This document shows, piece by piece, positions 3,006 to 56,461 of a DNA stretch of 64,000 nt (positions within the stretch are counted from its first letter, which is position 1; every line of letters starts with the position of its first letter). Under the pieces are notes generated by a model. That model saw only the letters and a list, made by a program, of their open reading frames with translations. It was not told the origin of the DNA and ran no database searches. A program made the position numbers and the translations under genes. Origin of the DNA: an uncultured Pseudomonadales bacterium. GTDB taxonomy: Bacteria; Patescibacteriota; Microgenomatia; UBA1400; PJMF01. The stretch covers positions 49,686 to 113,685 of the forward strand of contig CAZNOF010000005.1 in the NCBI GenBank assembly GCA_964574595.1. The letters are read 5' to 3'.

Positions 3006-3055
3006 TTGCTTTTTACCTCTGACTGATTTGGACGAGATGAATAAACTGGATACGA

Positions 3056-30085: not shown

Positions 30086-30946
30086 ATGCCTCTTCCAGAA
30101 ATTTCCTCCGAACCAGTCTTCCCAAATCAAGCCGTTCCGCTAGGTTTAACTTCAGTCGTGTTTGCATCTGGGGTAGGACTTTTGCTCATGGAGATTTTGA
30201 TCCTGAATAAGTTCGTCGTGGCAAGGCAACCGATTATCCCGGTTTTACGAATTCCAGATCTTCTTATCGGTGTGACTATCTACTTAAAGACATCAATTGA
30301 TTTTGCAATTTTCATTGGTAGGTTGATGAGCAAGTACCCAGGTTGGAAAAATCGAATAATGATCGAAATTGGAACGGCTCTAGGCAACATTGTTGGTACT
30401 TTAGCAATTCTGCTATTGTGGGATTTCTTTCGAGAAATTCGTTTTCTGATGGCGCTTATGATTTTAGTGGCTTCGTTAGTTCTGTTGCGAATGGCGGAAG
30501 AAGGCTTAGAGCATGTCAAAGATGAAGCGGGCTACTACAAAATTAAATTTGCCAAACTCGCGTACCAAATTGAAAAGACTCTTCATACAGTAAATACCTT
30601 CTTAGCTCCAGTTTTAAATAAAATTATCCCTCGAACAGACATGAAAGAAGATGGAAAAAAGAGTATGTGGGGATTGTTTGTGGTGGCATTTACGATTCCT
30701 TTTGTGCTGGGATTAGATGATTTTGCCGGATATATTCCACTTTTTAATGTAGTAAATGTCTTTGGATTTGGCTCAGGTGTTTTCTTAGGGCACATGTTCT
30801 TAAACATTGCATTGTTTTTATCGCCAAAAGTGACAATTAAAGTGGTGAAACATCCATATATCTCATTCGCGGGAAGTATTGCCTTCGTTGGTCTGGCAGT
30901 TTGGGGACTAATTGAAGCAGCAAAGTTAATCGGTTTAGGGGTCTAA
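30086..30946 (+). CDS. Polytopic membrane protein (286 aa)
   Basis: At least seven hydrophobic segments. It lies 10 nt after the helicase-nuclease gene. Confidence 0.5.
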   Translation: MPLPEISSEPVFPNQAVPLGLTSVVFASGVGLLLMEILILNKFVVARQPIIPVLRIPDLLIGVTIYLKTSIDFAIFIGRLMSKYPGWKNRIMIEIGTALGNIVGTLAILLLWDFFREIRFLMALMILVASLVLLRMAEEGLEHVKDEAGYYKIKFAKLAYQIEKTLHTVNTFLAPVLNKIIPRTDMKEDGKKSMWGLFVVAFTIPFVLGLDDFAGYIPLFNVVNVFGFGSGVFLGHMFLNIALFLSPKVTIKVVKHPYISFAGSIAFVGLAVWGLIEAAKLIGLGV

Positions 30947-32674
30947 TTATTTCCAACCGGGAAGAGCGAAAAAGAATGTATTTGCATACCAGTTCGGTAC
31001 GAATATTCCAATCCAGTTAGGGTAGAAAATAAAGAATGTGGCTCCCACAGCTAGAACTGATAACCACAAAATGAGCCGTCGCACAGCCAATGTTTTTCCA
31101 GCAAAGTGTACTTCAGTAGAAATATTTTGCGATTTGACCAGCCAGTAACTCAGAATAATTGCCAAGGTGGGAACAGCTGGAGTGTAGTGATAGAAGAACA
31201 TAATTCGAGGTGACAGTTGCCAAGGGAGCCAGACAATAAAGTAGGCGAACGTAATGAAACGCAGCGGTGAGAGAGCCGGGACGTAGTTGAGGTGAGTGAG
31301 AACCTCATTCTGTTTAATGACCGGCTCAGCGGTCATCACATCTTTTACCCCTTTGGTCAGGATGGTCACCACGGTAAGCAAAATAGCGATATCTCCCAGC
31401 CAGAATAGAATTGGATTTCCTTGTGTGTAAATGTTCGCGATCTGATCTTGACCATACGCAACAAACATCCAGACTGGCCGAATGTCTAGGAACCACTGAA
31501 TTGGTCGAGACTGATAAGGATGAGTGGCTTTCAAATTTGTTTGATACCACCAGATCTGAGTGTGCAACTCGGAAAAGTGAGAAATCAGCCGCTTGCAACC
31601 ACCTCTCGCTTCCAAACTTTCCCATTTTGCTGAATTTTGAGGCATGATTATTTTCAATCCTTCTACCCACCAAGAATTCGTTTGTTCGCAATAACATGAG
31701 CCTTGCTGCACGAAGTCTTGTTCGCAGACAAGTGTTTTTCCCTGAGCAAACATTTGCCAGTAGCTAGACACGTAAATAATGCCTGGAATGAGAATAACGT
31801 AGATAAGAACTTTACTGGCTTGAAAGAATATAGTTTTGAAAATCGTCAAGAAAACAGATGGTGTCCTTGCTGATTGAAAGACGCCACTAATGTAGGACAT
31901 TCTGGAAATTTCAGGAAGTCGTGTAGACAAAAACTTCTGATCTTCGTAATAGCTGACATACGCTTTCAATTGCTGCACCAAACTAATAAACTCGAAAAAG
32001 AGAATCGTCATAATTGCAAAAAAACCAGACCACTTACTTGCGGCAGCCAGTCCAAGACAAACGCTTGTTAAGAAGAGAAGAAACAAGTGTCGTTTATTTT
32101 GTGATCGATGGAAGAGCGTAAACTCAGGAATTTGCTCTTTCTCTGCCTTGGTTTCAGGAGCCTTTTGGAGAAGTGCCGCGCGATATTTTAAGTAGAAGAC
32201 GAATGACAGTAAAATAAAGAAAGTCACATGGATATCGTTCATTGCGATTCGCGACTGCACCAGCAACAAGCCATCAAAACTTGCGAGTGCTCCGGCTAAA
32301 ATGCTTATCCGTTTATCATGAAAAAGCTCCTCAGCTAGAAGTACAGTCGCCGCAATCACTAGGGTTCCAAAAATTACCGAGCTAATTCTCCAACCAAAAG
32401 GCGTTTCACCAAATACAGTCATTCCAAGAGCTTGAGTATATTTAGCAAATGGTGGGTGCAGCCAATCTACAGCAGTGCTTGGTTCTGGAGGTTCATTCCA
32501 CCATTCAAAAGCTCTGGGATCACCCCGGTGAATTAACTTAGCAGTGACAGCGTGGTATACCTCATCAAAAATGTAGGTTTTGATTTGACCCACCTGATAA
32601 ATGCGAGTCAGAAAAGCAAAGGACAAAATAAGCCCAAGCCAGAGCCAAAAGTATTTTTCGACTAAAAATTTCAT
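30947..32674 (-). CDS. GT-C fold glycosyltransferase, GT39/PMT-like (protein O-mannosyltransferase family; lipid-carrier dependent)
   Basis: A 575-aa polytopic protein with the family-typical loop-1 acidic motif FDEVYHA shortly after TM1. Confidence 0.55.
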   Translation of the reverse strand: MKFLVEKYFWLWLGLILSFAFLTRIYQVGQIKTYIFDEVYHAVTAKLIHRGDPRAFEWWNEPPEPSTAVDWLHPPFAKYTQALGMTVFGETPFGWRISSVIFGTLVIAATVLLAEELFHDKRISILAGALASFDGLLLVQSRIAMNDIHVTFFILLSFVFYLKYRAALLQKAPETKAEKEQIPEFTLFHRSQNKRHLFLLFLTSVCLGLAAASKWSGFFAIMTILFFEFISLVQQLKAYVSYYEDQKFLSTRLPEISRMSYISGVFQSARTPSVFLTIFKTIFFQASKVLIYVILIPGIIYVSSYWQMFAQGKTLVCEQDFVQQGSCYCEQTNSWWVEGLKIIMPQNSAKWESLEARGGCKRLISHFSELHTQIWWYQTNLKATHPYQSRPIQWFLDIRPVWMFVAYGQDQIANIYTQGNPILFWLGDIAILLTVVTILTKGVKDVMTAEPVIKQNEVLTHLNYVPALSPLRFITFAYFIVWLPWQLSPRIMFFYHYTPAVPTLAIILSYWLVKSQNISTEVHFAGKTLAVRRLILWLSVLAVGATFFIFYPNWIGIFVPNWYANTFFFALPGWK

Positions 32675-32681
32675 ATAGTAA

Positions 32682-33635
32682 TTAGAACAAGTATAAGATG
32701 GTCATGGTCAACAGGCCAAACAAAAATATAGTGCTGAGTAACGGCTTATCTCGCAAGACTACTTTTTCTGGAGATTCACCTTCATTATCCTCATAGACTA
32801 ATTGAAGATATCTCATCACTCCAAAAATGACCAGTGGAACCGTAGCCATCAAGAGTTTTTGTGATTGCAGAGTTTTTGGCAATATTGTGTAGACACTTAA
32901 CAACCTACCGGCTGGAGAGACACTTTCAGTTTGGAAAGCAAATAGCGCGTAGGTTAACCAGGTCGCATTGGCAAACATGCCGGTGTATTGATCGAGCAGA
33001 CGTTCACTGTATCGTTTCAGCGTTTTTCGAGTTTCTCCCATCTCTTTCCCTTTCAGGAGAGTTCGTTCACTTTGTCGTTTCCCCACAGCTAAGAAGAGTG
33101 AGGCTGAGAGGACTGTCAATAAAAACCAAACGCTGGTGTGAAGATTCACAACCACAGCTCCGGCATAGATTCTCAGTAAAAAGCCGGCTGCAATTGATAA
33201 AACGTCAATAATGGCGATGTGCTTTAGTTTTTTGGCATAAAGGATTTGCAACACAAAATATGCTGCCACTGTCAGTCTGAAGAATGGTGAAAAAGAGAAA
33301 CTGGCTAAGAAGACAATCGCTAGACCAGCCGCGGCCACACAGGCAGCTACCGGAATTGGTAATGCTCCAGAAGCAATTGGACGCTTCTTTTTAAAGGGAT
33401 GCATCCGATCCGCTTCAACGTCCACAATGTCATTAATGATGTAAATCGAAGAAGTCAAAAAACAGAAAACAATCACCGCGAACGTAACGGTTAAGAAGTA
33501 AGGCAGTTCGTTGGCAGGCTGATAGAAAAAGAACCCAGAAAATGTAAGAGCTGCGTAGAGAGCTAAGTTCTTTATCCATTGCCGTGGTCGGGCGGATTTA
33601 GCAATGAGGTAAATGAGACTGTTTTCCATAATCAA
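32682..33635 (-). CDS. UbiA-family polyprenyl-phosphate phosphoribosyltransferase (decaprenyl-phosphate 5-phosphoribosyltransferase/DPPR synthase-like)
   Basis: PRQWIKN near the N-terminus and NDIVDVEADRMHPFKKKRPIASG, which matches the DPPR-synthase version of the UbiA Asp-rich motif. The protein has about 8 TM segments. Confidence 0.6.
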   Translation of the reverse strand: MIMENSLIYLIAKSARPRQWIKNLALYAALTFSGFFFYQPANELPYFLTVTFAVIVFCFLTSSIYIINDIVDVEADRMHPFKKKRPIASGALPIPVAACVAAAGLAIVFLASFSFSPFFRLTVAAYFVLQILYAKKLKHIAIIDVLSIAAGFLLRIYAGAVVVNLHTSVWFLLTVLSASLFLAVGKRQSERTLLKGKEMGETRKTLKRYSERLLDQYTGMFANATWLTYALFAFQTESVSPAGRLLSVYTILPKTLQSQKLLMATVPLVIFGVMRYLQLVYEDNEGESPEKVVLRDKPLLSTIFLFGLLTMTILYLF

Positions 33636-34711
33636 ATTCTTGTTTTGTTTGTTTGAATCTTCGCCCAGATCAGGAATCCAAAGACAGAACAGGTGACAAT
33701 TCCGAAGGTGATTACCTTACCTAAACTGCTCAAGTATAATGATAACACACCCAAAATAAGAGTCGTTAGCCAGTAAAAAATTGCGATCCTTCTGCGCCCC
33801 CAACCCAAGACATCCATCAGTTTATGATGTAAATGACCGCGATCACCCCAGAAAGGCGACTTACCAGCTGCCAATCTTCTCGCAATAGTAAAAATCGCAT
33901 CTGCTGTGGGAATGGCCAAGACCATGATTGTGGTAGCAATTTTGGCTCCAGAAAGAATTGACAAAACAGCTAGCAAAAAGCCAGCCAAGGAGCCAGCACC
34001 ATAACCAGGCATGATTTTTTGAGGATAGACGTTCCAGACTAAGAGTCCAGCAAATGAGCCTGCTGCTATTAATGCTAGCGCTTGCGTATTGAATTGACTT
34101 GGATCGTCGGCAAACCGGCCAGCCAGGAAGCTAATAAAGACTAATGCTATTGCCACAAAACCGGGCATCTGACCATCTACACCTTTGGACCAGTTCACGA
34201 TATTCATATTCCAAACTATGAAAAAAAGCGCTAAAAGATCAGATAAAATCCAAACTGAATGTTGCGTGCCGAAAAGTTGGAACGAGTAAATCAAGGTATC
34301 AAGATGAATGACACCCTGACCAAAAGGATTGGTGACATAGGCAATACCAATTCCAGATCCCACAACAATCAGAGCGGCAATCAACCCAACTCCAAGCCTA
34401 TAGAGTGGATGAATGTCTTTTACGTCATCAATGAAGCCAGTGATTGCCAGGAGAAGTGAGGCAAAAAGAATTGCTAAAAGATACTTATCAACGTGCAGAA
34501 AGAGGAATGAGCAGATCAGCAAACTACTAAAAATGACAATCCCGCCACCTCTTGGAACTGGCTGCTTATGTGTCGTTTTGACGTGAGTAGCAAGCTGTGG
34601 ATCTTCTACCCAACCGTGTTTTTTATACCAATAGATAATTGCTGGGGTAATCAAGAGGGCGAGTAAAAAACTGCAGCCAAAGAAAATCATATTAAGAGAT
34701 GATATAGACAA
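33632..34711 (-). CDS. Polyprenyl-phosphate N-acetylhexosamine-1-phosphate transferase (GT4 MraY/WecA family)
   Basis: A 359-aa polytopic protein with the GFIDDVKD motif and the cytoplasmic-loop organisation of MraY/WecA. It overlaps the downstream UbiA gene by 4 nt. Confidence 0.6.
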   Translation of the reverse strand: MSISSLNMIFFGCSFLLALLITPAIIYWYKKHGWVEDPQLATHVKTTHKQPVPRGGGIVIFSSLLICSFLFLHVDKYLLAILFASLLLAITGFIDDVKDIHPLYRLGVGLIAALIVVGSGIGIAYVTNPFGQGVIHLDTLIYSFQLFGTQHSVWILSDLLALFFIVWNMNIVNWSKGVDGQMPGFVAIALVFISFLAGRFADDPSQFNTQALALIAAGSFAGLLVWNVYPQKIMPGYGAGSLAGFLLAVLSILSGAKIATTIMVLAIPTADAIFTIARRLAAGKSPFWGDRGHLHHKLMDVLGWGRRRIAIFYWLTTLILGVLSLYLSSLGKVITFGIVTCSVFGFLIWAKIQTNKTRI

Positions 34712-35045
34712 TCCTTACTAGTTCCAAAGTTAGTAAAATTTGAATTGCTAAGGTACACCAAGCAAAGAGCATGGGAATAATCTTCTCATGGTGAAAAAGG
34801 ATCTTAATTAAAAAGGCGTGCCCAATTGTAATCGCAAATGATATTACCGGAAAAAGAATCAGCCATTGCTTATCAACTAGATAGTCGGTTGGTTCGGCCA
34901 ACGAATAATACATGGGAACAGTTGGTTGGAGTCTGAAATAGGCAATCAGGAGAAAGAGCGCAATTCCCGAGCTAAATAAGAACGAAAGCTGAAAGGGTGC
35001 TTTCAAGTACCGGGGAACTTGGAGTGAAAATGTTTTAGGAGTCAT
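34692..35045 (-). CDS. Small membrane protein (117 aa)
   Basis: Three to four TM segments. It overlaps the GT4 gene by 20 nt inside the glycosylation operon. Confidence 0.4.
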   Translation of the reverse strand: MTPKTFSLQVPRYLKAPFQLSFLFSSGIALFLLIAYFRLQPTVPMYYSLAEPTDYLVDKQWLILFPVISFAITIGHAFLIKILFHHEKIIPMLFAWCTLAIQILLTLELVRIVYIIS

Positions 35046-35078
35046 AAATGGATCTTGAGTACTTCACCATCCATTATA

Positions 35079-36707
35079 TCAGGTGGGAATCTTTTTCCAG
35101 AGAATGAAGTGCTCAAAGTTCAGGTTGGGAATGTAGTTCTGTTCAAGGTACATTTTAATTTCATCTGGAACTGTTTCCCCCTTAATTACTACAGCATAAA
35201 TTGGACGCACTTTCACTAAATCAAGGTATGTCTCGTGTTCTGCTTGGAAGTCTCTAATATGAAACAGAACGGTAAATCTGCCGACAGGAGATTTTCTGGA
35301 TAGGGCATACAGGCCTGGATCTGTTCCCCAGATGAAAAGGTGATTGCCAGGTGAGGCAGAGATGATTTTGGCGGCCGCATAATTATCCGGCATCAGCACT
35401 TCAAAGCTATCCCGGTACTCTTTGCCGGTCATTTGACCCGTTAGAAAGCGATAAAAACGTTGGTAATAACTCAGCGTGGCATATGGCCGTACGTTAAGTA
35501 GAACCAGGGCACTTACAAAAACAAAAATGAGTGCAGCTGAGGTTACTATTTCCAGACTTCTGCCGATTTGTTCACCGGCACTTTGTTTCACTTTTCTAGT
35601 GATAGTCAACGTTTTGACAATGCCCAGGAGTTCACCAATTAGCAGCGCAAAAGGTGGTACGAGCTGCAAAAAGTAGTGCGGATAAGGTCGATTCGACAGG
35701 AGTGTTGCAAAAAAGGCGAGGGCAAACCAAGTGGCAACAAATTGAAACTTATGTCGCATATATCGAGATGAAAGAGATACGAGGCCGATGATTGCGGCAG
35801 CAATCAAAGCTTTTCCACCTAGAGTGAAAGCAAAACTAATAAGTGGATTGGCAAACTCAAGCTTCCATGAACCGGCATACCTGAAGTTATAGAGTAAGCC
35901 ATAATCGAGATATGCTTTGCCTGAACCGCGGACGACAAAATAAATGATTGAAGCGATAATTGGAGTGATAACGCCAGCAGACACAACAAGTGTTGAGACA
36001 ATTGTTTCTTTCGCTTTGACCATCCAAGTTCGGTTTTGGCGATATCGATCAAAGATCGGCAATGCTCTAAGCAGACTAAACCAACCAACACTCAAGAATG
36101 CTAGGACATCAAATAAGCCAGGAACTTTCGTTAAAATACCCAAGCCAAAGAAACAACCCGCAACGAACAGCCACAGATTTTCTGTCTTATGAGTGGCCAG
36201 TTCAGGGCCAGGAATCGATTTTTCTGACGCGAGAAATTGGTTTAAAGACTGCGTTTTCATTAAACTGGCAGCTCCCAACAGTACGAACGTAATCACAAAT
36301 AACTCGCCGTTTGGAATATTTCCTTCCAGTGCGGGAAGCGTTGTTAAGACAACGAATACAAGAGTTGAAAAATAAGTAATCCAGTTGCGGGAGAAGAGTT
36401 TTTTACAAAGGGTATAAAAAATAATTGTGCTGATCGTCATGGCACCAATATTCAGCACGCGGAACCAGAATTGATTGGGCACCATGGCTAAGTAATAAAT
36501 GATTGGTGTCTTGTGGTCAATGATTTGGCTATAGAGCTTCTCTCCTTGAACCATTGCCCGACCAATCGTTAAGTAAATTGCTTCGTCTCCATACCAATAT
36601 GGTTCCACCAAGTTGGGGATTCGCAGCATCAGCATGAGAGCTAACAAAATTAAAATTGGAATGTGTTGATCAAGGAAGTAATCGACTTTTTTGAACCATT
36701 TAAACAT
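35079..36707 (-). CDS. GT-C fold glycosyltransferase, ArnT/PMT-like (GT83/GT39 family)
   Basis: A 542-aa polytopic protein with an N-terminal YWYGDEAIY acidic motif typical of lipid-carrier-dependent GT-C enzymes. Confidence 0.5.
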   Translation of the reverse strand: MFKWFKKVDYFLDQHIPILILLALMLMLRIPNLVEPYWYGDEAIYLTIGRAMVQGEKLYSQIIDHKTPIIYYLAMVPNQFWFRVLNIGAMTISTIIFYTLCKKLFSRNWITYFSTLVFVVLTTLPALEGNIPNGELFVITFVLLGAASLMKTQSLNQFLASEKSIPGPELATHKTENLWLFVAGCFFGLGILTKVPGLFDVLAFLSVGWFSLLRALPIFDRYRQNRTWMVKAKETIVSTLVVSAGVITPIIASIIYFVVRGSGKAYLDYGLLYNFRYAGSWKLEFANPLISFAFTLGGKALIAAAIIGLVSLSSRYMRHKFQFVATWFALAFFATLLSNRPYPHYFLQLVPPFALLIGELLGIVKTLTITRKVKQSAGEQIGRSLEIVTSAALIFVFVSALVLLNVRPYATLSYYQRFYRFLTGQMTGKEYRDSFEVLMPDNYAAAKIISASPGNHLFIWGTDPGLYALSRKSPVGRFTVLFHIRDFQAEHETYLDLVKVRPIYAVVIKGETVPDEIKMYLEQNYIPNLNFEHFILWKKIPT

Positions 36708-36751
36708 TCGTTCATTATGAACAACATTTTGAAAAACCGCAAATCGAAAAG

Positions 36752-38248
36752 TTAGACTTTTTCTGTGACGCGGTACTCGATATATTTCCCTAACATTAAT
36801 CTAGTATGAGCATCTAGACCAGGCAGGGCTGAGAAGAAGAATCCGATAATGGGTAAAAGTAAGAACTCAACAGGTTGCAAAATATACGAGAAAACGTTTC
36901 GCTTGTTTGGTCGAGGGGGTCTGTTCATTGCGTCAATCACAAAAATAACCAACATACTGATCAGTGACATGGTCAATAATCCAGAAGTTACTTGAGGCAA
37001 TCGAGTACCTAATGCTGTTCTAGCAAAAACAGGATTAAGAAGTGGCGGCAAAATTGCAGAGGTGGTAATTGCGAACCAGTTGACTGGCCACAAGAAATGG
37101 TCCTCAACAATTTTAAAGACGCGGATTGTTTTATCCCAAAATGGGACACCTTCAGACAGCACATACTGGCGAACAATGTAGGCGTCGTCACTAACACCCC
37201 ATGCCCAACGCACCAACTGTTGATACTGATTTGTCATAGCTGAGACGAAGCCCTTGGCTTCGGCAGCATCCGCATAGATTGGTAAGAAGATTGGTTGAAC
37301 CTCAAAATCGCCTTTTTTGGCAAAGTACGATTTAAAGAATAACCGATAATCTTCTGGAATAACGTCAGTATCCCAATAGCCAATGTCATCGACATGCTTC
37401 AAGGAAGTTGAGTAGGTAGAAAAGTTCACTAATCGATCTTTTCTCATTAAAATATAAAGTTGGGAAACAGAAAAAACTGATGCTAAAACGCGAATGGGAG
37501 GGTAGACCTTCCAAATATTATTATAAAAAACAATGCCGCCCTGCCAAATTTTATTGAATGGCTTGTCGGTTGTTAGGAAGTCGTGAGTGAGACTAGCAAA
37601 GTAGCTTTTGTGAAATAGTGCGTCAGCATCTTCACTCGTAATGGTAACTTTTTTGATATCTAAACCTTCTTGATCAATGAGCAATTTTTTAGCAGCCTTA
37701 GCACCCCAGCTTGTATTAGATGATTTACCTTTTACTTCACCCTGAATATCAGGATGTTCCGTTGTCCAGAGATCTCCAAACAAATGTCCAAACTCCTTTT
37801 TGAGTAAAATAGCTTTTTCTCGTGCGACTTCACCTTCTCGTTCTTCAAAAGAGAGCATAATGTGGAGACGTTTAATTGGGTATGTTTGTTCCGAGAGAGC
37901 CGCTAAGGTTCTTTGAAGCGTGGTCAACGGTTCTTGATAGGTTGGAATGACGATAATGTGATGAATACTGTCCCAAGTTTGAGGGTACTCTTCTTGCAAG
38001 TAGCCAATCCAGTTAAACTTCATGGAGGCTCTCATTTTAAAGTTAGCTACGATGGAAAGAATGGCGATCGAGACAGATCTGTAGAGCCAGTACACTGCAA
38101 AAGTGATCACGTAGTAAGCCACAATGGAAGGAAAGACAAACGAACCCCAGATTGGAAAGAGAATTAGTGACCAAGAAACAAATCCAGGCAAAATTTCTAA
38201 AAAGCGTTGGGTTCTGATTGGGTGACGACGAAAGTACGTTTTGATCAT
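36752..38248 (-). CDS. Membrane-embedded family 2 glycosyltransferase (GT-A fold with N- and C-terminal TM bundles)
   Basis: IVIPTYQEP and a SEDAD (DXD-like) motif in a central cytoplasmic domain, flanked by TM segments. Confidence 0.5.
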   Translation of the reverse strand: MIKTYFRRHPIRTQRFLEILPGFVSWSLILFPIWGSFVFPSIVAYYVITFAVYWLYRSVSIAILSIVANFKMRASMKFNWIGYLQEEYPQTWDSIHHIIVIPTYQEPLTTLQRTLAALSEQTYPIKRLHIMLSFEEREGEVAREKAILLKKEFGHLFGDLWTTEHPDIQGEVKGKSSNTSWGAKAAKKLLIDQEGLDIKKVTITSEDADALFHKSYFASLTHDFLTTDKPFNKIWQGGIVFYNNIWKVYPPIRVLASVFSVSQLYILMRKDRLVNFSTYSTSLKHVDDIGYWDTDVIPEDYRLFFKSYFAKKGDFEVQPIFLPIYADAAEAKGFVSAMTNQYQQLVRWAWGVSDDAYIVRQYVLSEGVPFWDKTIRVFKIVEDHFLWPVNWFAITTSAILPPLLNPVFARTALGTRLPQVTSGLLTMSLISMLVIFVIDAMNRPPRPNKRNVFSYILQPVEFLLLPIIGFFFSALPGLDAHTRLMLGKYIEYRVTEKV

Positions 38249-38299
38249 AAGCGGCAGAATTCTATTTTACCTGATTAGGCCTTGAATATATATCCTGTA

Positions 38300-39118
38300 T
38301 TACTGAACACTGAACAATCGTAAACTATTTTCGTAGATTTGGCTAAGGTCTAGTTGAAGTTCATCGGCAACATATTCTGCAGTCAGGGAAATCATCCAGG
38401 GCTCACATGGTTTCCCTCGATGTGGAACTGGTGGCAAAAATGGCGCGTCAGTTTCTAGCAGAACTCGATCTTTCGGCGCAAACGCGGCAATCTCTCGAAT
38501 CCGTTGAGAATTTTTATATGTTACATTGCCTGCCAGGCCAATGTAGGCACCTAGTTGTATGGCTTCTTGAATGTAACTTAAAGGACCGGAGACACAGTGA
38601 AGAACAAACGGTTGAGAAAAAGCATGTTTTTGCAAGATCGCTAATACATCGCCGTAGGCATCCTCTTTGGTGTCCCGTACGTGGATTATTAACGGCACTT
38701 TTAATTCCTGCGCAAGTTGTATGTGCATTGAAAAACCAGCTTTTTGCGCACTTTTTATCGATTCACGTAACTCGGCATCATCAGGGAGTCGAAAGTAGTC
38801 TAGACCGGTTTCGCCAATTCCAGCCACATGGGATAAATCTAATGACCGTAGACCTTTCTCATCCACTTCAATTGACTGAAGTACTGACTGGTTACTTGAC
38901 TCAACTCTTTCTTGATACTCTCCCGGATGAATTCCAACGACCGCATGAAAGGCTGGATTTTCTTTTGCCAAATTTATCGCTCTCAGGTTTGTCTCTTGGT
39001 TGACGCCAATAATCGTTGAGTGGGTTACACCAGACTCTTGAGCCTTGGTCCAATACGTTTTCCACTCGTTGAAGAATGGATCTAAATTATAGTGACAGTG
39101 AGTGTCGAAAATTGTCAT
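38300..39118 (-). CDS. tatD: TatD-family metal-dependent DNase/hydrolase
   Basis: N-terminal FDTHCH and TIM-barrel metal-binding His/Glu/Asp positions, consistent with a 272-aa TatD. Confidence 0.75.
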   Translation of the reverse strand: MTIFDTHCHYNLDPFFNEWKTYWTKAQESGVTHSTIIGVNQETNLRAINLAKENPAFHAVVGIHPGEYQERVESSNQSVLQSIEVDEKGLRSLDLSHVAGIGETGLDYFRLPDDAELRESIKSAQKAGFSMHIQLAQELKVPLIIHVRDTKEDAYGDVLAILQKHAFSQPFVLHCVSGPLSYIQEAIQLGAYIGLAGNVTYKNSQRIREIAAFAPKDRVLLETDAPFLPPVPHRGKPCEPWMISLTAEYVADELQLDLSQIYENSLRLFSVQ

Positions 39119-39122
39119 GTAG

Positions 39123-40556
39123 TTACTCAGCTAAGCGAGGAAAAAGCGGTTTCAGAGCAGTAATTTTAGGGGCGGTGAAGTGATTCAAGATGGTTTGACT
39201 GGTTTCGGGCATGAAGGGTTGCAAATGGTAAGCGATATCGACAATGCGCTCAACTGCAGCATTCAAGGTTTTCACTTGTTCTTCTCCAGTTTGTTTCCAG
39301 GGTTGTTGCTCACTTAAAAATTGATCGGCTAAAATGGTCTGTTGTTTCAACCAAAGAAGCGCTCGATCTTCCTCAAATGATGCCATAAATGAACTATAGT
39401 CAGCATTACATGTGGTTGGAACTTTAGCACCTGCTATGCCTGCTTTTTCGGAAAGTTTAGCTACACGTGAGCACAAGTTGCCAATCCCATTGGCTAAATC
39501 TGATTCATAGACTTCTTTAAATCGATCGTAACTAAAGTCGCCATCACTATGTGAGGGTATTTCCTTCAGCAAAAAGTAACGAACTGGTTCTAGACCAAAT
39601 TGTTTGACGACTTCAAAAGGATCAATGACGTTTCCTAAACTTTTACTCATTTTTTGACCATTGGCCGTAATATACCCATGAATACTTATTGATTTAGGGA
39701 CAGCGAGCCCCGCAGAGAGCAGCATCCCGATCCAGTAGATTGAGTGGAATCGATTAATCCCTTTTCCGATGACGTGTACATCAGCTGGCCAATACTTCTC
39801 AAATTCTTTTTGATCAAATCCCCAGCCAATACCTGTTAGGTAGATTGAGAGGGCGTCGAACCAAACGTACATTATATGATCATCATCATTTGGAACCGGC
39901 ACTCCAAAACCTCTAGCGCGACTTTTCGATCGAGAGACACTGAAGTCTTGTAATCCCTTGTTAATGAAACCGAGCATTTCATTTTTGTATTGAGTAGAAA
40001 CAAGTCTGAGTTCATCGCTTTCAATTAATTGTTTGATCTGTGATTCATATTTGGACAGTTTGAAAAAATAGTTTTCTTCTTCAATTTGTTCGGGAACAGT
40101 TAAATGCTCTGGGCATTTACCATCAACTAATTCGTCAGGTGTATAGAATGATTCACAGCCTACACAATAGAGACCGGTGTACGTTTTTTTATAGATGTCG
40201 CCACTTTTGTCACATAGTTCCCAGAGTTTTTGTACTCCTGGCCAGTGTTTCTCTTGATCACTGCCCCGTCTAAAGCCAGTGAGACTAATACCAAAGAATT
40301 TAAACGCTTCTTTAAATATCTCGGAGTATTCATCAAGCCATTCTTGAGTGGATTTGCCGGCTTTTTCTGCAGCCTGAACATTCTTTAAACTATTTTCGTC
40401 TGCGCCTGAAATGAAGGCTACGTCTTTGCCTAACAATTTTTGATATCTGACGATCGCATCAGCCTGTAACCACTCAAAAACGTGTCCTAAGTGTGGTTTA
40501 GCATTTACGTAGGGAATAGCAGTAGTGAGATAGAAAGTATTAGCGGTTTTTGGCAC
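39123..40556 (-). CDS. metG: Methionine--tRNA ligase (short form)
   Basis: HLGH (HIGH-class) motif and KMSKS (GQKMSKSLGNV). The likely start is a GTG at 40554-40556. Confidence 0.85.
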   Translation of the reverse strand: MPKTANTFYLTTAIPYVNAKPHLGHVFEWLQADAIVRYQKLLGKDVAFISGADENSLKNVQAAEKAGKSTQEWLDEYSEIFKEAFKFFGISLTGFRRGSDQEKHWPGVQKLWELCDKSGDIYKKTYTGLYCVGCESFYTPDELVDGKCPEHLTVPEQIEEENYFFKLSKYESQIKQLIESDELRLVSTQYKNEMLGFINKGLQDFSVSRSKSRARGFGVPVPNDDDHIMYVWFDALSIYLTGIGWGFDQKEFEKYWPADVHVIGKGINRFHSIYWIGMLLSAGLAVPKSISIHGYITANGQKMSKSLGNVIDPFEVVKQFGLEPVRYFLLKEIPSHSDGDFSYDRFKEVYESDLANGIGNLCSRVAKLSEKAGIAGAKVPTTCNADYSSFMASFEEDRALLWLKQQTILADQFLSEQQPWKQTGEEQVKTLNAAVERIVDIAYHLQPFMPETSQTILNHFTAPKITALKPLFPRLAE

Positions 40557-40571
40557 AGAGCTTATTATAGC

Positions 40572-40925
40572 CTATTTTCTGAAGAATTTGGTCAACTTCT
40601 GGAGCTGAGCTTCTGCCCATTGTTCTTGATTTATTTTTTCAATCGCCATTCTAAAACCTGGTTCTTTCATCATTGCAGATACTCCAGAGATGGTTGCACT
40701 TGAAACATTGAGTATTTTCTTAATTTCTTCGTAAGCTACTTTTTTATGTAACAACAGCCCAATCGCCAATCGCTTGGAGAGCACAACTCGTTCAGTTGAG
40801 GTCAGAAAATCGTTGAGGAATTGCTTTGCATCACTCATTTTATTGAGTTCGCACAGCGCTAATGCCAGATGACCGTTAACTTCATTGGTAATTTCTTTTG
40901 AGAGATTCTTGGAGGAAACTTGCAC
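40572..40925 (-). CDS. TrpR-like DNA-binding protein, YerC/YecD family
   Basis: A 117-aa protein with the HTH LTSTERVVLSKRLAIGLLLHKKVAYEEIKKILNVSSATISGV, matching the TrpR_YerC pattern. Confidence 0.55.
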   Translation of the reverse strand: MQVSSKNLSKEITNEVNGHLALALCELNKMSDAKQFLNDFLTSTERVVLSKRLAIGLLLHKKVAYEEIKKILNVSSATISGVSAMMKEPGFRMAIEKINQEQWAEAQLQKLTKFFRK

Positions 40926-40932
40926 AGCTGCA

Positions 40933-41508
40933 TTATCTTCGGTGAGTTCGATACGTCAAGAGGAACTCTGAGCCTACAAAGAGCAAAATGGTAACTACGA
41001 CCAATGGGGTATTCCAAAAGTGATGAATTCTCAAAGAGAATAGAACACTCAGGAGAATGGCAAGTAAGAAACTTCTACGAAGATTTTGTAAGAGATACCA
41101 AGCAGTAAAGAAATGCCCAAAACCAAAAGCCAACAGGATCGGAAGATACGAATTAGGCAGAATCAGGTCTTTGATTGCGGCAGGTTGAATTTTTTGCAGG
41201 ATGATCACTGCGATGAAGTAAGAGAGTATTCCTAAGAATAAGGTGGGCAACTGCAAGATGTACTTTTTGGGAGAGAAATTCTCTGACAGAAGTAAACGAA
41301 TGAGCTGTGGTTGACTATTATGGCCGGAATTCGAAGTTTGACGATGTATGACTTTTCGTTTTTCTAGTTTTAGTGGTTTCGCTGCAGGTGGCTCCGATGT
41401 TGCTACTCCTGAAATATATTTTCCCTTCAAGTAGTCGGGCTTTTCTTTTTTATGAGTTGGCTCTGCCGGCGAGTCATCCAAAGAGAATTGCTTGAGAAGT
41501 GTTGGCAT
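40933..41508 (-). CDS. Hypothetical membrane protein (191 aa)
   Basis: A charged N-terminus is followed by 3-4 TM segments. Confidence 0.4.
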   Translation of the reverse strand: MPTLLKQFSLDDSPAEPTHKKEKPDYLKGKYISGVATSEPPAAKPLKLEKRKVIHRQTSNSGHNSQPQLIRLLLSENFSPKKYILQLPTLFLGILSYFIAVIILQKIQPAAIKDLILPNSYLPILLAFGFGHFFTAWYLLQNLRRSFLLAILLSVLFSLRIHHFWNTPLVVVTILLFVGSEFLLTYRTHRR

Positions 41509-44482: not shown

Positions 44483-45457
44483 ATGCACGCGAAAAAAGAA
44501 GAAAATGAAATCTATTTCTTAACAGGAGCTGCCGGTTTTATTGGTGCCAATTTATTGCGTAGATTACTAGATGAATCTTGTGCAGTGCATATTCTCTTAA
44601 AAGAGTCATCAAATTGTTGGAGAATTGCTGAAGTCTTAAAACATCCAAAACTAACTGTTCACTACGGTGATCTCGCTGATCAGGAAGCACTCTCAGAGCT
44701 ACTGAGAAATGTGCAACCAACTGTCGTTTATCATCTAGCCACAAGAGGCGCTTACTCTTCTCAAAATGATCCCAAAGATATTTTTGAGACAAACCTTTTG
44801 GGGACTCTTCATCTGCTTGAAGTTGCCAGAGGCATGCCTCTCAAGCTATTTGTGAATACGAGCTCCACCTCAGAATATGGCAGCAAAAACCAGCCAATGA
44901 AAGAAGATGATGTGCTTGAGCCAGATAGTTTTTATGCAATTAGTAAAGTAGCTGCCACGCATGCTTGCCATCAGTACTATGTACAGTACTCAGTTCCGGT
45001 GGTGACTCTTCGCCTCTTCTCAGTCTTTGGACCATGGGAATCGCCAACCAGATTATTTCCCACATTGCTTGAATCACTTCGTTTGGGAAACATGATGAAC
45101 ATGGTGAAGCCAGAAACTGCCCGGGACTTTATTTTTATTTCTGATGTTATTGATCTTTATCGCAAGATTGAACTTCTGAGTAAGTTCCCAGGAGAAGTTT
45201 TCAACGTGGGATCCGGTAAACAAACGAGTCTCAAGCAACTGTCCGAAGTTGCCGTTCAAGTCACAAAGAAGAAAAGTCAGTTTGCCTGGAAAGCGGTACC
45301 TTCAAAAAGTTGGGACAAAGACATTTGGGTAGCTGATATGCATAAAACCTACAAGACATTGAACTGGTCAGCCAAAGTTTCAGTAGAAGAAGGTTTAAGA
45401 GAGTATTGGTCATGGTATTTGCATCATCATCAAATCTATCACTCTATGCTACACTAA
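44483..45457 (+). CDS. NAD-dependent sugar epimerase/dehydratase (extended SDR)
   Basis: GAAGFIGANL Rossmann motif and the YAISK (YxxxK) catalytic motif, in a 324-aa protein. Confidence 0.8.
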   Translation: MHAKKEENEIYFLTGAAGFIGANLLRRLLDESCAVHILLKESSNCWRIAEVLKHPKLTVHYGDLADQEALSELLRNVQPTVVYHLATRGAYSSQNDPKDIFETNLLGTLHLLEVARGMPLKLFVNTSSTSEYGSKNQPMKEDDVLEPDSFYAISKVAATHACHQYYVQYSVPVVTLRLFSVFGPWESPTRLFPTLLESLRLGNMMNMVKPETARDFIFISDVIDLYRKIELLSKFPGEVFNVGSGKQTSLKQLSEVAVQVTKKKSQFAWKAVPSKSWDKDIWVADMHKTYKTLNWSAKVSVEEGLREYWSWYLHHHQIYHSMLH

Positions 45458-45463
45458 TCGCCA

Positions 45464-46189
45464 ATGTCGTTCCGTCTCTCTTCTCTCAGTCGCACCCAGT
45501 TACGGCTTCGTCAGGAAATACTTGAGATAAGTCATCGGCATCATTTTCCACATTTGGGTTCTTGCTTAAGTATGGTCGACATACTTGATTCCATATATAA
45601 AGTGAAAAGACCGAACGACGTATTTATTCTTTCCAATGGTCATGCCGCAATCGCTTACTACGTGATTCTTAGAAAGAATGGACTATTAACAGAAAAAGAG
45701 GTTGATGAACTGATGGTTCATCCCGATGCTGCTCCTGAGCGGGGAATTTCGGTTTCTTCTGGGAGTTTAGGACAAGGCTTACCCATTTCAATTGGTTGGG
45801 CACTGGCTAATCGAAAGAGAAAGATTTTTTGCACCATTTCTGACGGCGAGTGTATGGAAGGGAGTATTTGGGAAAGTTTGAGAATAATTCAGGAACTGAA
45901 GTTAGACAATCTTTGCATAACCATTAATGCCAACGGTTGGGGAGCGTATCGACCTATTGATCTGTCATTATTGAAAAGGCAACTAAAGGCCTTACGATTT
46001 CTAGTAAAAGAAGTGAATGGGCATGACCTTCCCGAACTGCTTGCAGCTTTGAAAAGTCAAAAGAAACAAGGCTCAGAAGCCATGGAAATAATTTTTGCTA
46101 AAACGAATGTTGAACAGTATCCTTTTTTGAAGGGGCAGGCAGCGCATTATCATGTGATGACTCAAGAGAACTATGATTCAACTCGTTAA
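45464..46189 (+). CDS. Transketolase-like protein, N-terminal (TPP-binding) subunit
   Basis: HLGSCLSMVDIL...SNGHAAIAYYVIL matches the split-transketolase N-terminal half. Confidence 0.65.
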   Translation: MSFRLSSLSRTQLRLRQEILEISHRHHFPHLGSCLSMVDILDSIYKVKRPNDVFILSNGHAAIAYYVILRKNGLLTEKEVDELMVHPDAAPERGISVSSGSLGQGLPISIGWALANRKRKIFCTISDGECMEGSIWESLRIIQELKLDNLCITINANGWGAYRPIDLSLLKRQLKALRFLVKEVNGHDLPELLAALKSQKKQGSEAMEIIFAKTNVEQYPFLKGQAAHYHVMTQENYDSTR

Positions 46190-46676
46190 CCTACGCCACG
46201 AATTCGCAGAGTTAGTTCACGCTGAAATGCGTAATAATCCAGATGTCTGGGTGATAACTGGAGATCTGGGATATGGAATGTGGGACAAAATTATGTCAGA
46301 TTTTCCCGACAGATTTATAAATACAGGAGCTGCTGAACAAGCCATGATGGGACTGGCAGTAGGATTGGCACAGTCTGGCAAGATCCCGTTAGTTTACTCA
46401 ATTACTCCTTTTCTGTTGTATCGCCCATTTGAGACGATCCGGAACTACATTCATCAGGAGAAAATTCCAGTCAAGCTAGTTGGGTCGGGCCGGAATCGAG
46501 ACTACGAAAATGAAGGGTTTTCTCATTGGGCCGAAGAAGATACGGCAGTTATGAAGATCCTCTCAAATATTCACTCCTACTGGCCATCAGATTTAGCGGA
46601 ACTAAAAAAAGTTACGAAAAAAATGTTTCAGACAAATCAGCCCTTTTACATCAACTTAACGAAAGTAACAAAATGA
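46173..46676 (+). CDS. Transketolase-like protein, C-terminal (pyrimidine-binding) subunit, short
   Basis: ITGDLGYGMWD...NTGAAEQAMMGLAVGLAQSGKIPLVY matches the Transket_pyr domain. It overlaps the upstream gene by 17 nt, and its TGA stop overlaps the ATG of the next gene. Confidence 0.6.
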   Translation: MIQLVNLRHEFAELVHAEMRNNPDVWVITGDLGYGMWDKIMSDFPDRFINTGAAEQAMMGLAVGLAQSGKIPLVYSITPFLLYRPFETIRNYIHQEKIPVKLVGSGRNRDYENEGFSHWAEEDTAVMKILSNIHSYWPSDLAELKKVTKKMFQTNQPFYINLTKVTK

Positions 46677-47605
46677 AAAAGAAAAAACTAAGCGCTGTGA
46701 TTGCTTGCTACAGAGATGCTCAAGCTATTCCAGTCATGTATCAGCGCTTAACTCAGATGTTTAAAAAGTTAGCAATCGATTACGAGATTATCTTTGTCAA
46801 TGATGGTAGCCCTGATAATACGGAGGAAGTGCTTCAAAAGTTGGTAAAAAAAGATGCGCACGTGATTGGCATAAACCATTCCCGAAACTTTAGTTCGCAG
46901 ATGGCGTTTACGAGTGGGATGAATATTGCATCGGGAGATGCCTTAGTTTTCATGGATGGGGATTTACAGGATCCTCCTGAGCTAATTCCTGACTTTTTTA
47001 AAAAATATCAAGAAGGTTATGATGTCGTTTATGGTATCAGAGTGAAACGTGATGAAGTCTGGTATATGCAGCTCCTCTACAAGCTCTTTTACCGGTTTTT
47101 TTCAAGACTTTCCTATCTGCACATGCCGGTAGATGCGGGTGATTTTTCGCTGATTGATCGAAAAGTTATTAATGCCCTGAAACAGTTCCCAGAGCGGGAC
47201 CGATTTATTCGAGGCCTCAGAGCATGGGTTGGTTTTAAGCAAATTGGCGTGCCATATGTTCGACCAAAGAGAATGTTTGGTGTGAGTACCAATAATTTTT
47301 TCAAGAATTTCCGATGGGCAATTAAAGGTATTTTTTCATTCTCGTACGTACCATTGGAGATGATCACGAATTTGTCACTCATTGTTTGTATCGCCTCATT
47401 TCTCGGAATTATTTGGCAAATTATCGATCGCATCGTGGATCCGGGTACACCAAGAGGTATTACTACTATCTTGGTGGTAGTACTTTTTATTGGAGCAATC
47501 CAGCTTTTAGCTTTGAGTATCTTGGGTGAATATTTGATGAAGATTTTTGAGGAAGTGAAACAAAGACCTCCATATATTGTAAAAAGTATTTTTAAGAAGA
47601 TATGA
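46673..47605 (+). CDS. Polyprenyl-phosphate glycosyltransferase, GT2 Dpm1/GtrB/ArnC-like
   Basis: The start was reassigned to the ATG at 46673 (MKKKKLSAVIACYRD...). GT-A signature with FVNDGSPD and two C-terminal TM helices, as in GtrB/ArnC. Confidence 0.7.
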   Translation: MKKKKLSAVIACYRDAQAIPVMYQRLTQMFKKLAIDYEIIFVNDGSPDNTEEVLQKLVKKDAHVIGINHSRNFSSQMAFTSGMNIASGDALVFMDGDLQDPPELIPDFFKKYQEGYDVVYGIRVKRDEVWYMQLLYKLFYRFFSRLSYLHMPVDAGDFSLIDRKVINALKQFPERDRFIRGLRAWVGFKQIGVPYVRPKRMFGVSTNNFFKNFRWAIKGIFSFSYVPLEMITNLSLIVCIASFLGIIWQIIDRIVDPGTPRGITTILVVVLFIGAIQLLALSILGEYLMKIFEEVKQRPPYIVKSIFKKI

Positions 47606-56427: not shown

Positions 56428-56461
56428 TTTCTCCTAAAAGTATGCGAAATGTGGTTTCAAA

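Follow-up and report, generated by a model that had tools for sequence, protein, structure and literature searches.

The stretch of DNA analysed here (the window; 64,000 nucleotides of contig CAZNOF010000005.1, assembly GCA_964574595.1) carries a string of six genes whose products belong to families of glycan assembly. The genome is deposited as an uncultured Pseudomonadales bacterium, yet the organism belongs to the Patescibacteria or Candidate Phyla Radiation (CPR), in keeping with the small-genome, CPR-like host suspected in a preliminary inspection of the letters and their open reading frames (ORFs), referred to below as the sequence-only reading. The six genes occupy the end of a run of ten genes on the same strand and encode, in order, a membrane glycosyltransferase of family 2 (GT2), a large glycosyltransferase of the GT-C fold, a small transmembrane (TM) protein, a MraY/WecA-family transferase (GT4), a UbiA-fold enzyme (UbiA) and a second GT-C enzyme related to protein O-mannosyltransferases (PMT-like; Table 1). 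The list of ORFs, hidden Markov model (HMM) searches of Pfam and NCBIfam and, for GT2, fold and motifs left the span, order, strand and all six family calls of the sequence-only reading intact. The functional roles discussed for these genes rest on homology, predicted structures and synteny.

Table 1. Genes of the glycan cluster, flanking genes and other features of the window. The last column gives, where available, the median identity to the window protein.
Feature	Position	Strand	Length	Description	Median identity (%)
GT2	36752-38248	minus	498 aa	membrane-embedded processive-synthase type (cellulose/hyaluronan/chitin-synthase-like)	71.7
GT-C	35079-36707	minus	542 aa	ArnT/PIG-M/PMT-like fold, C-terminal extracytoplasmic alpha/beta domain	44.8
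Small TM protein	34692-35045	minus	117 aa	about 3 TM helices, family without annotation	
GT4	33632-34711	minus	359 aa	Pfam Glycos_transf_4; polyprenyl-phosphate N-acetylhexosamine-1-phosphate transferase family, WecA-like, not MraY	62.7
UbiA	32682-33635	minus	317 aa	predicted polyprenyl-phosphate 5-phosphoribosyltransferase (DPPR synthase/PPPRS type)	66.1
PMT-like GT-C	30947-32674	minus	575 aa	GT39/PMT-like, no MIR domain, variable terminal member	39.8
Six-gene glycan string	30947-38248	minus		GT2 to PMT-like GT-C	
Ten-gene run	30947-41508	minus		glycan string and upstream genes	
TatD		minus		upstream of the string	42.9
MetRS		minus		upstream of the string	43.5
TrpR-family repressor-like protein	40572-40925	minus		just upstream of MetRS	
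Membrane protein	30086-30946	plus	286 aa	polytopic, abuts the end of the PMT-like gene	
UvrD		plus		UvrD/PD-(D/E)XK helicase	43.8
Second glycan-related run	44483-50350	plus		sugar-modifying and glycosyltransferase genes	
PgfS/ArnC-like enzyme	46526-47605	plus		polyprenyl-phosphate glycosyltransferase	
Cytochrome b5-like protein	52333-52710	minus	125 aa	haem/steroid-binding domain	
Two class II aminoacyl-tRNA synthetases	55105-57775	minus	440 and 437 aa	adjacent D/K/N-type paralogues	
KAP-family protein	61947-63956	minus	669 aa	P-loop NTPase model	
ORF in GC-rich segment	1725-3101	minus	458 aa	no Pfam match	

The junctions within the string are as tightly packed as had been described, with intergenic spacers of 44, 33 and 7 nt, while the two reported overlaps need amendment. 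The GT4/UbiA junction reads TTGA rather than ATGA, and an ATG lies 2 nt past the GT4 stop, where the 315-aa UbiA model of NCBI begins; this codon, at 33629, is the probable start of UbiA. Likewise, the small TM gene overlaps GT4 by 20 nt only if GT4 starts at an upstream TTG; with the in-frame ATG at 34690 a 1-nt gap is left instead. We regard this ATG as the probable start of GT4, because the resulting 352 aa agree with the lengths of its orthologues (348–365 aa). Promoter and terminator scans returned counts at or near shuffled expectation and so contribute no operon evidence, and scans of the cluster region for Rfam families and tRNAs gave no matches.

What reaction does the UbiA protein catalyse? 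Its best NCBIfam match is the equivalog model for decaprenyl-phosphate phosphoribosyltransferase (NF008978; 226 bits, cutoff 207), that is, decaprenylphosphoryl-5-phosphoribose (DPPR) synthase, here called polyprenyl-phosphoribose synthase (PPPRS) where the lipid is left general. The next three models are also of PPPRS type, among them NF008977 (212 bits), NF008976 (160 bits) and a HAD-UbiA fusion model, and the best model of any other prenyltransferase follows at 54 bits. Against the PDB, the protein matches Rv3806c of Mycobacterium tuberculosis (8j8j) at E 6.7e-37 and true UbiA at only 1.6e-4. BLASTP gives 34–36% identity to PPPRS from five phyla (E 1e-46 to 1e-53). In a neighbour-joining distance tree, which carries no bootstrap or other support values, UbiA and 13 CPR orthologues form one clade inside the PPPRS family, together with sequences from Mycobacterium, Tsukamurella, Chondrinema, Lactococcus, Marivivens and Halostagnicola, and the outgroups E. 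coli UbiA, MenA and CyoE fall outside. The assignment to the DPPR-synthase subfamily made in the sequence-only reading from an Asp-rich motif (NDIVDVEADRMHPFKKKRPIASG, residues 68–90 of the ORF) is thus borne out by HMM scores, PDB match and tree alike, and the protein does not cluster with MenA, UbiA or CyoE.

The active site points the same way. The structure of Rv3806c has named the residues that bind phosphoribosyl pyrophosphate (PRPP) and decaprenyl phosphate (PMC10994848). Mapped through an HMMER alignment, 12 of these 13 residues (Rv3806c R22, K28, Y70, N73, D77, K87, R90, Q135, Y138, K143, K191 and K208) are identical in UbiA, the equivalent positions being R16, K22, Y65, N68, D72, K82, R85, Q130, Y133, K138, K186 and K204. 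The sole differing site is Tyr157 of Rv3806c, a Phe in UbiA (F152), and the same replacement is seen in some mycobacteria (PMC10994848). Most of the substrate-binding residues are invariant among 20 UbiA orthologues. Taken by its sequence, the protein is thus very likely a PRPP:polyprenyl-phosphate 5-phosphoribosyltransferase. NCBI already labels its CPR orthologues ‘decaprenyl-phosphate phosphoribosyltransferase’.

How widely is this gene arrangement shared? In a scan of genomes representing species, 347 contained a close relative of UbiA, and 80 loci were retrieved; the close homologues come from organisms named Patescibacteria group bacterium, Candidatus Pacebacteria/Paceibacterota, Woesebacteria and Microgenomates. 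Across these 80 genome loci the order MetRS-TatD-GT2-GTC-smallTM-GT4-UbiA-(PMT)-UvrD (MetRS, methionyl-tRNA synthetase) is nearly universal. A second scan, seeded with a 12-sequence alignment of GT2, added 80 metagenome contigs with GT2 at 44–77% identity, so that the order GT2-GT-C-smallTM-GT4-UbiA recurs in about 160 CPR loci (about 80 species-level genomes plus the 80 contigs), which places the cluster far beyond chance and answers the call of the sequence-only reading for a test of neighbourhood conservation in the affirmative. GT2 is the most conserved gene of the cluster, and GT2, UbiA and GT4 are more similar to their relatives than is the neighbouring MetRS (Table 1; the UbiA figure is inflated, since the genome loci were picked by UbiA similarity), which argues for a core rather than an accessory function.

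The common order is not without departures. Among the 34 metagenome loci with at least 6.5 kb of sequence downstream, UbiA was found in 27, GT4 in 29 and GT-C in 25, with none of these in five. Wherever GT4 occurs in the related loci, it is adjacent to UbiA. Five loci (L105–L108 and L149) carry GT2, the small TM gene, GT4 and UbiA but lack the 542-aa GT-C. The space between GT2 and GT-C takes up additional GT-C paralogues (DUF2079, PMT_2) in divergent lineages, and the position after UbiA varies: most often a PMT-like gene stands there, in other genomes DUF2298 together with PMT, or a sugar nucleotidyltransferase, or no such gene at all. What stays invariant is therefore the core smallTM-GT4-UbiA, usually accompanied by at least one GT-C and downstream of the synthase-type GT2. 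As an aside on taxonomy, dozens of metagenome-assembled genomes that clearly belong to the Patescibacteria (same synteny, proteins 60–75% identical) bear the public label ‘uncultured Pseudomonadales bacterium’; one such mislabelled genome appears as ‘Vitreimonas sp.’ and another as ‘Limisphaerales’.

The first gene of the string, GT2, is hard to place by sequence comparison. It scores 21.2 bits against Pfam Glyco_trans_2_3 (PF13632; cutoff 27), and neither the single sequence nor a clade profile gave a significant PDB sequence match, a profile search reaching BcsA at E 0.03–0.2 only. Its AlphaFold2 model (pLDDT 82) is more telling: the best Foldseek matches in the PDB are hyaluronan synthases (E 1e-8), BcsA and chitin synthase. 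In line with this fold, the sequence holds the motifs PTYQE (102), DAD (207), PED (298), QQLVRW (344) and YRVTEK (492), whose E. coli BcsA counterparts PTYNE, DCD, TED, QRIRW and FNVTAK follow in the same order and at similar spacing. D207, D209, D300, Q344, R347 and K497 do not vary among 52 relatives (27–45% identity), of which 41 match PF13632 (E<0.01) and three match Chitin_synth_2. The family is small, with 354 representatives at E<=1e-30 in an exhaustive search of 1.84 billion proteins. Judged by its predicted structure, GT2 is a cellulose/hyaluronan-synthase-like membrane enzyme with a GT-A domain fused to a TM channel. It shares its fold with BcsA, class I hyaluronan synthase and chitin synthase/NodC, and like them has PTYxE, DxD, (T/P)ED, QxxRW and (F/Y)xVTxK in this order. 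It differs from the solved synthases in that its sequence similarity to them is insignificant, from the known synthases in the location of (F/Y)xVTxK at the extreme C-terminus, and from synthase-dependent beta-glycan secretion systems in having neither a PilZ domain nor a BcsB-like partner.

GT4 is more readily classified, though not as the orthologue of any characterised relative. It matches Pfam Glycos_transf_4 (PF00953) at 74.4 bits (cutoff 27) and finds MraY 5jnq as its best PDB match (E 2e-13), whereas its scores of 63 bits against the WecA model TIGR02380 (cutoff 326) and 61 bits against the MraY model TIGR00445 (cutoff 192) indicate a member of the MraY/WecA family that is orthologous neither to WecA nor to MraY. 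In an alignment with the two E. coli proteins, DD95-96, D179 and a WecA-like loop (SPFWGDRGHLHH) of the type SPFxxDRxHLHH are retained, GDRGHLHH of this loop lining up with PDRQHIHH of WecA. Two canonical Asp residues are replaced: the NxxDGxDG motif reads NWSKGVDG, with Lys176 for the first Asp, and VFMGDxGS reads IMPGYGAGS, with Tyr237 for Asp. Positions 230–245 hold no acidic residue, and Tyr237 is found in every CPR orthologue examined. GT4 and its CPR orthologues, with Lys and Tyr in place of Asp, may define a subclass of polyprenyl-phosphate N-acetylhexosamine-1-phosphate transferases (PNPT) with altered metal binding or another donor. The sequence-only reading had cast GT4 as the initiating hexosamine-1-phosphate transferase; its family membership holds, whereas the initiating role can be proposed only conditionally given the noncanonical active site. 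We rejected GT4 as the cell's MraY on account of its score far under the MraY cutoff, its WecA-type C-terminal loop and its altered motifs. Nor does it show homology to the ‘glycosyltransferase family 4’ protein encoded beside the PPPRS of Marivivens.

The small TM protein upstream of GT4 matches no Pfam or NCBIfam model; four of 42 family members give weak DUF1648 matches (best E 0.012). A loop motif follows its first TM helix, QPxIPLFYSLA here and LPPxIPLFYSxPWGxxQL in distant lineages. By tblastn the family is kept in 56 of the 80 genome loci, and an ORF of 106–141 aa with the latter motif lies directly upstream of GT4 in 42 of 42 metagenome loci, some of them without GT-C. The protein may be a flippase, a scaffold or a partner of GT4/UbiA. 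As a GtrA protein it was dismissed (hhalign probability 0.1%).

Both large membrane proteins proved to be GT-C enzymes and not transporters, as Pfam PMT models, folds and invariant DE motifs attest. For the 542-aa protein, the PMT model gives 27.8 bits (cutoff 22.7), and PDB searches with the single sequence and with a clade profile returned nothing significant; its GT-C fold emerges from the predicted structure, which resembles ArnT and PIG-M. The 575-aa protein exceeds the cutoffs of PMT_4TMC (77 bits), PMT (65 bits) and PMT_2 (38 bits), matches Pmt4 in the PDB (E 6e-10) and has a loop-1 Asp37-Glu38 pair that is invariant in 25 orthologues. It is not an orthologue of bacterial Pmt by the NCBIfam equivalog NF058602 (97 bits, cutoff 800). 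Structure comparison revealed no Emb/Aft-type arabinofuranosyltransferase character in either enzyme, with AftA, AftB, AftD and EmbA among the weaker structural matches. The 542-aa GT-C is a candidate user of a polyprenyl-phosphate-linked pentofuranose donor. A possible kinship with the 462-aa protein next to the Lactococcus PPPRS was dropped, there being no similarity between the two.

What might the cluster make? We lean, by a narrow margin over an even chance, towards a route in CPR of the Pacebacteria/Microgenomates type that builds a core cell-surface glycan from a PRPP-derived, lipid-linked pentofuranose donor. At the cytoplasmic face of the membrane, UbiA would move 5-phosphoribose from PRPP to polyprenyl phosphate, yielding polyprenyl-phosphate-ribofuranose-5-phosphate, a step strongly supported by homology and by the active site. 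The 5-phosphate might be kept, or else removed by an enzyme encoded outside the cluster. The donor would most likely stay ribo-configured rather than become arabinofuranose, as the absence of a DprE1/E2-type epimerase at the locus suggests. The lipid-linked sugar would then be flipped, for which the conserved 3-TM protein is a speculative candidate, being the only membrane component left without an assigned role. Outside the membrane, the 542-aa GT-C, joined by lineage-variable PMT_2, DUF2079 and DUF2298 paralogues, would pass the pentofuranose to an acceptor, as expected from the biology of GT-C enzymes and from their co-localisation with PPPRS in CPR and other phyla. Going by synteny, the acceptor could come from the WecA-like GT4, as a polyprenyl-diphosphate-sugar primer, and from the BcsA/hyaluronan-synthase-like GT2, as a beta-glycan exported through its own channel. 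The general mechanism has been shown experimentally in Citrobacter and mycobacteria (PMC11127046, PMC10994848). Moreover, PPPRS genes with PMT/GT39-like neighbours in Chondrinema and Halostagnicola support PMT-like enzymes as possible consumers of the donor.

Several observations weigh against this route. GT2 is tied to MetRS and TatD as tightly as to the glycan genes, and since CPR genomes keep long conserved gene orders, synteny alone cannot prove a single pathway. The PgfS/ArnC-like polyprenyl-phosphate glycosyltransferase elsewhere in the window is a possible alternative donor source for the GT-Cs, which are structurally nearer to hexose or 4-amino-4-deoxyarabinose transferases than to mycobacterial arabinofuranosyltransferases. 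The loss of two canonical Asp residues makes the activity of GT4 uncertain, and the retrieval of genome loci through UbiA flatters the conservation of that protein. Finally, no homologue of a phosphatase (PAP2, HAD, PHP), an epimerase or a recognised flippase was found in the window and the 160 related CPR loci (2.25 Mb in total). As for the proposal in the sequence-only reading that all six genes might serve one pathway, the conserved neighbourhood speaks in favour, and the variability of the PMT-like gene and the second polyprenyl-phosphate-sugar synthase in the window speak against.

The most serious competitor, which we hold possible but unlikely, accepts the conserved order but sees no common pathway behind it: envelope modules independent of one another, two or three in number, would have stayed neighbours in streamlined CPR genomes. 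GT2 would make and export its own beta-glycan, the GT-C or GT-Cs would use a polyprenyl-phosphate-hexose from the PgfS/ArnC-like enzyme, and the unit proper would shrink to smallTM-GT4-UbiA. Such a division would sit well with the constant position of GT2 beside MetRS/TatD, with its lack of nearby GT4 or UbiA in 5 of 34 loci, with the PMT-like gene being variable or absent, with the five loci that lack the 542-aa GT-C, with a second polyprenyl-phosphate glycosyltransferase within the window and with promoter and terminator scans that yielded nothing above shuffles. It accords less well with the accumulation of GT-C paralogues specifically at the cluster site across lineages, and with the recurrence of the pairing of PPPRS and PMT-like GT-C in Bacteroidota and haloarchaea. 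Furthermore, the only known use of the PPPRS product is as a donor for GT-C enzymes (PMC11127046).

The run that contains the PgfS/ArnC-like gene (250 bits to PgfS) also encodes an NAD-dependent sugar epimerase/dehydratase, a split transketolase whose N and C halves are separate ORFs, a 601-aa protein and a SAM methyltransferase. The 601-aa protein, encoded after the PgfS/ArnC-like gene, has no family match and is possibly its membrane partner. These are followed by an M10-like peptidase and a GH16.

Returning to the route from PRPP, which sugar would it deliver? Known PPPRS pathways include a 5′-phosphatase, usually a flippase, and an epimerase if the sugar is not ribose (PMC11127046). We searched the 2.25 Mb by tblastn with the proteins of loci in which such auxiliary enzymes accompany PPPRS: Lactococcus pF27D (HAD-IB, GtrA), Tsukamurella (PAP2, AftB, GlfT2), Marivivens (PAP2, EamA), Chondrinema (DprE1-like, DprE2-like, GT39), Halostagnicola (PHP, NAD oxidoreductase, PMT-like) and Vibrio (HAD-UbiA, EamA). 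PPPRS alone found homologues. The DprE1-like query of Chondrinema had no match and its DprE2-like query one weak match to a generic short-chain dehydrogenase/reductase (SDR), and neither GtrA nor EamA was detected in the 161 CPR sequences, nor AftB or GlfT2 in the window and related loci. Among roughly 56 scanned ORFs of the window, Pfam identified no FAD_binding_4, adh_short, PAP2 or HAD family, and of the flippase families no MATE or GtrA/SMR/EamA member. UbiA itself has no HAD fusion, its 317 aa matching no part of the HAD-UbiA model NF006088 beyond the C-terminal half. TatD, which lies upstream in conserved synteny, we considered as the missing 5′-phosphatase and set aside, as no evidence speaks for it. 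Adjacency of MetRS and TatD is common in other bacteria, so the presence of TatD needs no link to glycans.

The lack of DprE1/E2 in the window and related loci favours ribofuranose over arabinofuranose. The arabinofuranose-type pathway put forward in the sequence-only reading is accordingly not upheld, since its defining enzymes were found neither in the 64-kb window nor in the 160 related loci; ribofuranose, or conceivably ribose-5-phosphate, appears the more economical prediction. A mycobacterial-type pathway with DprE1/E2-like enzymes encoded elsewhere and the GT-Cs acting as arabinofuranosyltransferases seems improbable to us. It could draw on the PPPRS, which is about 35% identical to Rv3806c and to the Tsukamurella DPPR synthase with a conserved active site, on the several GT-Cs per PPPRS, reminiscent of the Emb/Aft arrangement, and on the window being only 64 kb of the genome. 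Yet phyla that have the epimerase pair hold it beside PPPRS, and here a DprE1-like FAD-oxidase, the FAD_binding_4 and adh_short families, and PAP2, AftB and GlfT2 were not found in the searches above, the single SDR match being weak; the Aft and Emb proteins rank low among the structural matches of the GT-Cs, too. Least credible of all, to the point of being nearly discounted, is that UbiA belongs with the ordinary prenyltransferases of aromatic compounds or haem (MenA, UbiA or CyoE type), or with those of the archaeal-lipid type, and has its GT neighbours by coincidence, for although JGI pipelines name many orthologues ‘4-hydroxybenzoate polyprenyltransferase’ and the protein fits the generic Pfam UbiA model (60 bits), its PPPRS scores far exceed the at most 54 bits of prenyltransferase models, BLASTP gives E ~0.1 to E. 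coli UbiA and MenA and no match to CyoE, it keeps the Rv3806c-specific residues that bind phosphoribose and pyrophosphate, and the tree places it within the PPPRS clade.

A bolder extension of the PRPP-derived route, to which we assign a rather low likelihood, is that Microgenomates-type CPR independently evolved a lineage-wide secondary cell-wall polymer, an analogue of arabinogalactan made from ribofuranose or ribose-5-phosphate. If true, several GT-Cs would polymerise the PRPP-derived pentofuranose, or attach it, onto the glycan of the BcsA/hyaluronan-synthase-like enzyme and/or the WecA-like primer. GT4 would then represent a new PNPT subclass with Lys and Tyr for the two canonical Asp, and the 3-TM protein a new family that substitutes for a flippase or organises a GT4-UbiA complex.

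Systems of this kind are already known. Kelly et al. (2024, PMC11127046) describe a polyprenyl-phosphoribose synthase combined with a flippase and GT-C enzymes in Citrobacter, in Pseudomonas and further Gram-negatives, in Gram-positives and in a phage. With the window UbiA as tblastn query, 90 records of plasmids or chromids and one phage contig proved to carry annotated PPPRS genes; they span Actinomycetota, Bacillota, Bacteroidota, Cyanobacteriota, Pseudomonadota (with Alphaproteobacteria) and Halobacteria. The DPPR-synthase-like enzyme outside Actinobacteria that had stood out in the sequence-only reading is thus real, while its claim to novelty is not sustained in view of that work (PMC11127046), of the homologues in several phyla and of the NCBI labels. 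Full-text literature searches returned no paper that ties this pathway to CPR/Patescibacteria.

A close parallel is Citrobacter youngae O1/O2, whose ORF15-ORF14-ORF12 likewise encode a UbiA-fold, PRPP-using phosphoribosyltransferase beside GT-C enzyme(s) (PMC11127046). The logic would be the same as in the systems of Kelly et al.: a polyprenyl-phosphate-pentofuranose is made in the cytoplasm and used outside, with ribofuranose expected where an epimerase is lacking. The CPR cluster differs from them in several respects. No HAD phosphatase, fused or separate, and no MATE/GtrA/EamA flippase was found in it; its GT-Cs match PMT, PMT_2 and PMT_4TMC, resemble ArnT/PIG-M and show no tblastn similarity to the membrane proteins beside PPPRS in Lactococcus or Vibrio. 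In addition, the module comes coupled to a synthase-type GT2, to a PNPT resembling WecA and to a 3-TM protein that is novel, and its high conservation is that of a core locus, not of one that varies and modifies the serotype.

The mycobacterial and corynebacterial decaprenylphosphoryl-arabinose (DPA) pathway (Rv3806c, Rv3807c, DprE1/E2, Emb/Aft; PMC10994848) offers a second comparison and, like the pilin system of Pseudomonas aeruginosa, is an instance known for longer. Its PPPRS is homologous (about 35%) with 12 of 13 residues the same, several GT-Cs again accompany one PPPRS, a WecA-type initiator and a GT2 serve the acceptor polymer, and the CPR locus likewise behaves as an essential-looking core envelope locus. 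Unlike that pathway, the CPR loci yielded no homologue of DprE1/E2, PAP2 or the GtrA-like Rv3789, their GT-Cs are not Emb/Aft-like, and their GT2 is a membrane synthase, not GlfT2-like; the organism, a member of the CPR, has a wall of Gram-positive-like type, and its sugar is probably ribofuranose. In Pseudomonas aeruginosa Pa5196, D-arabinofuranosylation of the pilin by TfpW also has a GT-C use a PPPRS-derived polyprenyl-phosphate-pentofuranose outside the cytoplasm. A protein acceptor is conceivable, which is relevant to the PMT-like member. The Pseudomonas system has DprE1/E2 homologues, which the CPR loci did not yield, and targets type IV pilin.

Parallels known from genes alone come from the Chondrinema litorale plasmid and the Halostagnicola larsenii megaplasmid, where PPPRS (34–36% identity) adjoins PMT-like GT-C genes as it does here, and from the exopolysaccharide module of Lactococcus cremoris pF27D, where it adjoins a hypothetical membrane protein. 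These loci hold auxiliary genes that the CPR loci do not, namely DprE1/E2-like (Chondrinema), PHP and NAD oxidoreductase (Halostagnicola) and HAD-IB and GtrA (Lactococcus); conversely, the smallTM-PNPT pair and the synthase GT2 are absent from all three. The Chondrinema and Halostagnicola clusters suggest that pentofuranosylation extends, through PMT-like GT-Cs, beyond the GT136 systems described so far. The Chondrinema plasmid cluster comprises two GT39 genes, DUF2723, DprE1/E2-like genes and acyltransferases, and the Halostagnicola megaplasmid cluster a PMT-like GT-C, a PHP phosphoesterase and an NAD oxidoreductase.

What sets the CPR cluster apart from a known kind of system is therefore its set of partners, the auxiliary enzymes that were not found, its very high conservation and the taxon. 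A large part of bacterial diversity belongs to the CPR/Patescibacteria, which live attached to hosts and whose surface chemistry is almost unstudied. With GT2, UbiA and GT4 conserved above the neighbouring MetRS, the cluster is a good candidate pathway for a major envelope glycan. It would extend the polyprenyl-phosphoribose glycosylation strategy to a new superphylum with different partner proteins, and it flags two families for attention, that of the small 3-TM protein and that of the PNPT whose active site is altered. Existing concepts are not overturned, the key enzyme family being widespread and already auto-annotated in these genomes.

As to the surroundings of the cluster, TatD, MetRS, the TrpR-like protein (49 bits) and a 191-aa membrane protein lie 5′ of it in the same strand run, and the 286-aa membrane protein and the UvrD/PD-(D/E)XK helicase lie 3′ on the opposite strand. 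The 286-aa protein matched no Pfam or NCBIfam model and, by tblastn, nothing in the 80 related genome loci; it appears to be genome-specific or very fast-evolving. The window encodes Ddl and a Mur ligase, from which it follows that the organism makes peptidoglycan.

Other features of the window lie further from the cluster. The 125-aa protein with a cytochrome b5-like domain (70 bits) is unexpected in a fermentative, small-genome CPR bacterium. The two adjacent class II synthetase paralogues are probably AspRS and AsnRS. GC content peaks at 0.51 at 2001–4000, the maximum of the window, over the 458-aa ORF. At the other end, it falls to 0.34 at 62001–64000, compared with about 0.42 elsewhere, and this low-GC stretch, which encodes the KAP-family protein, may be acquired DNA.

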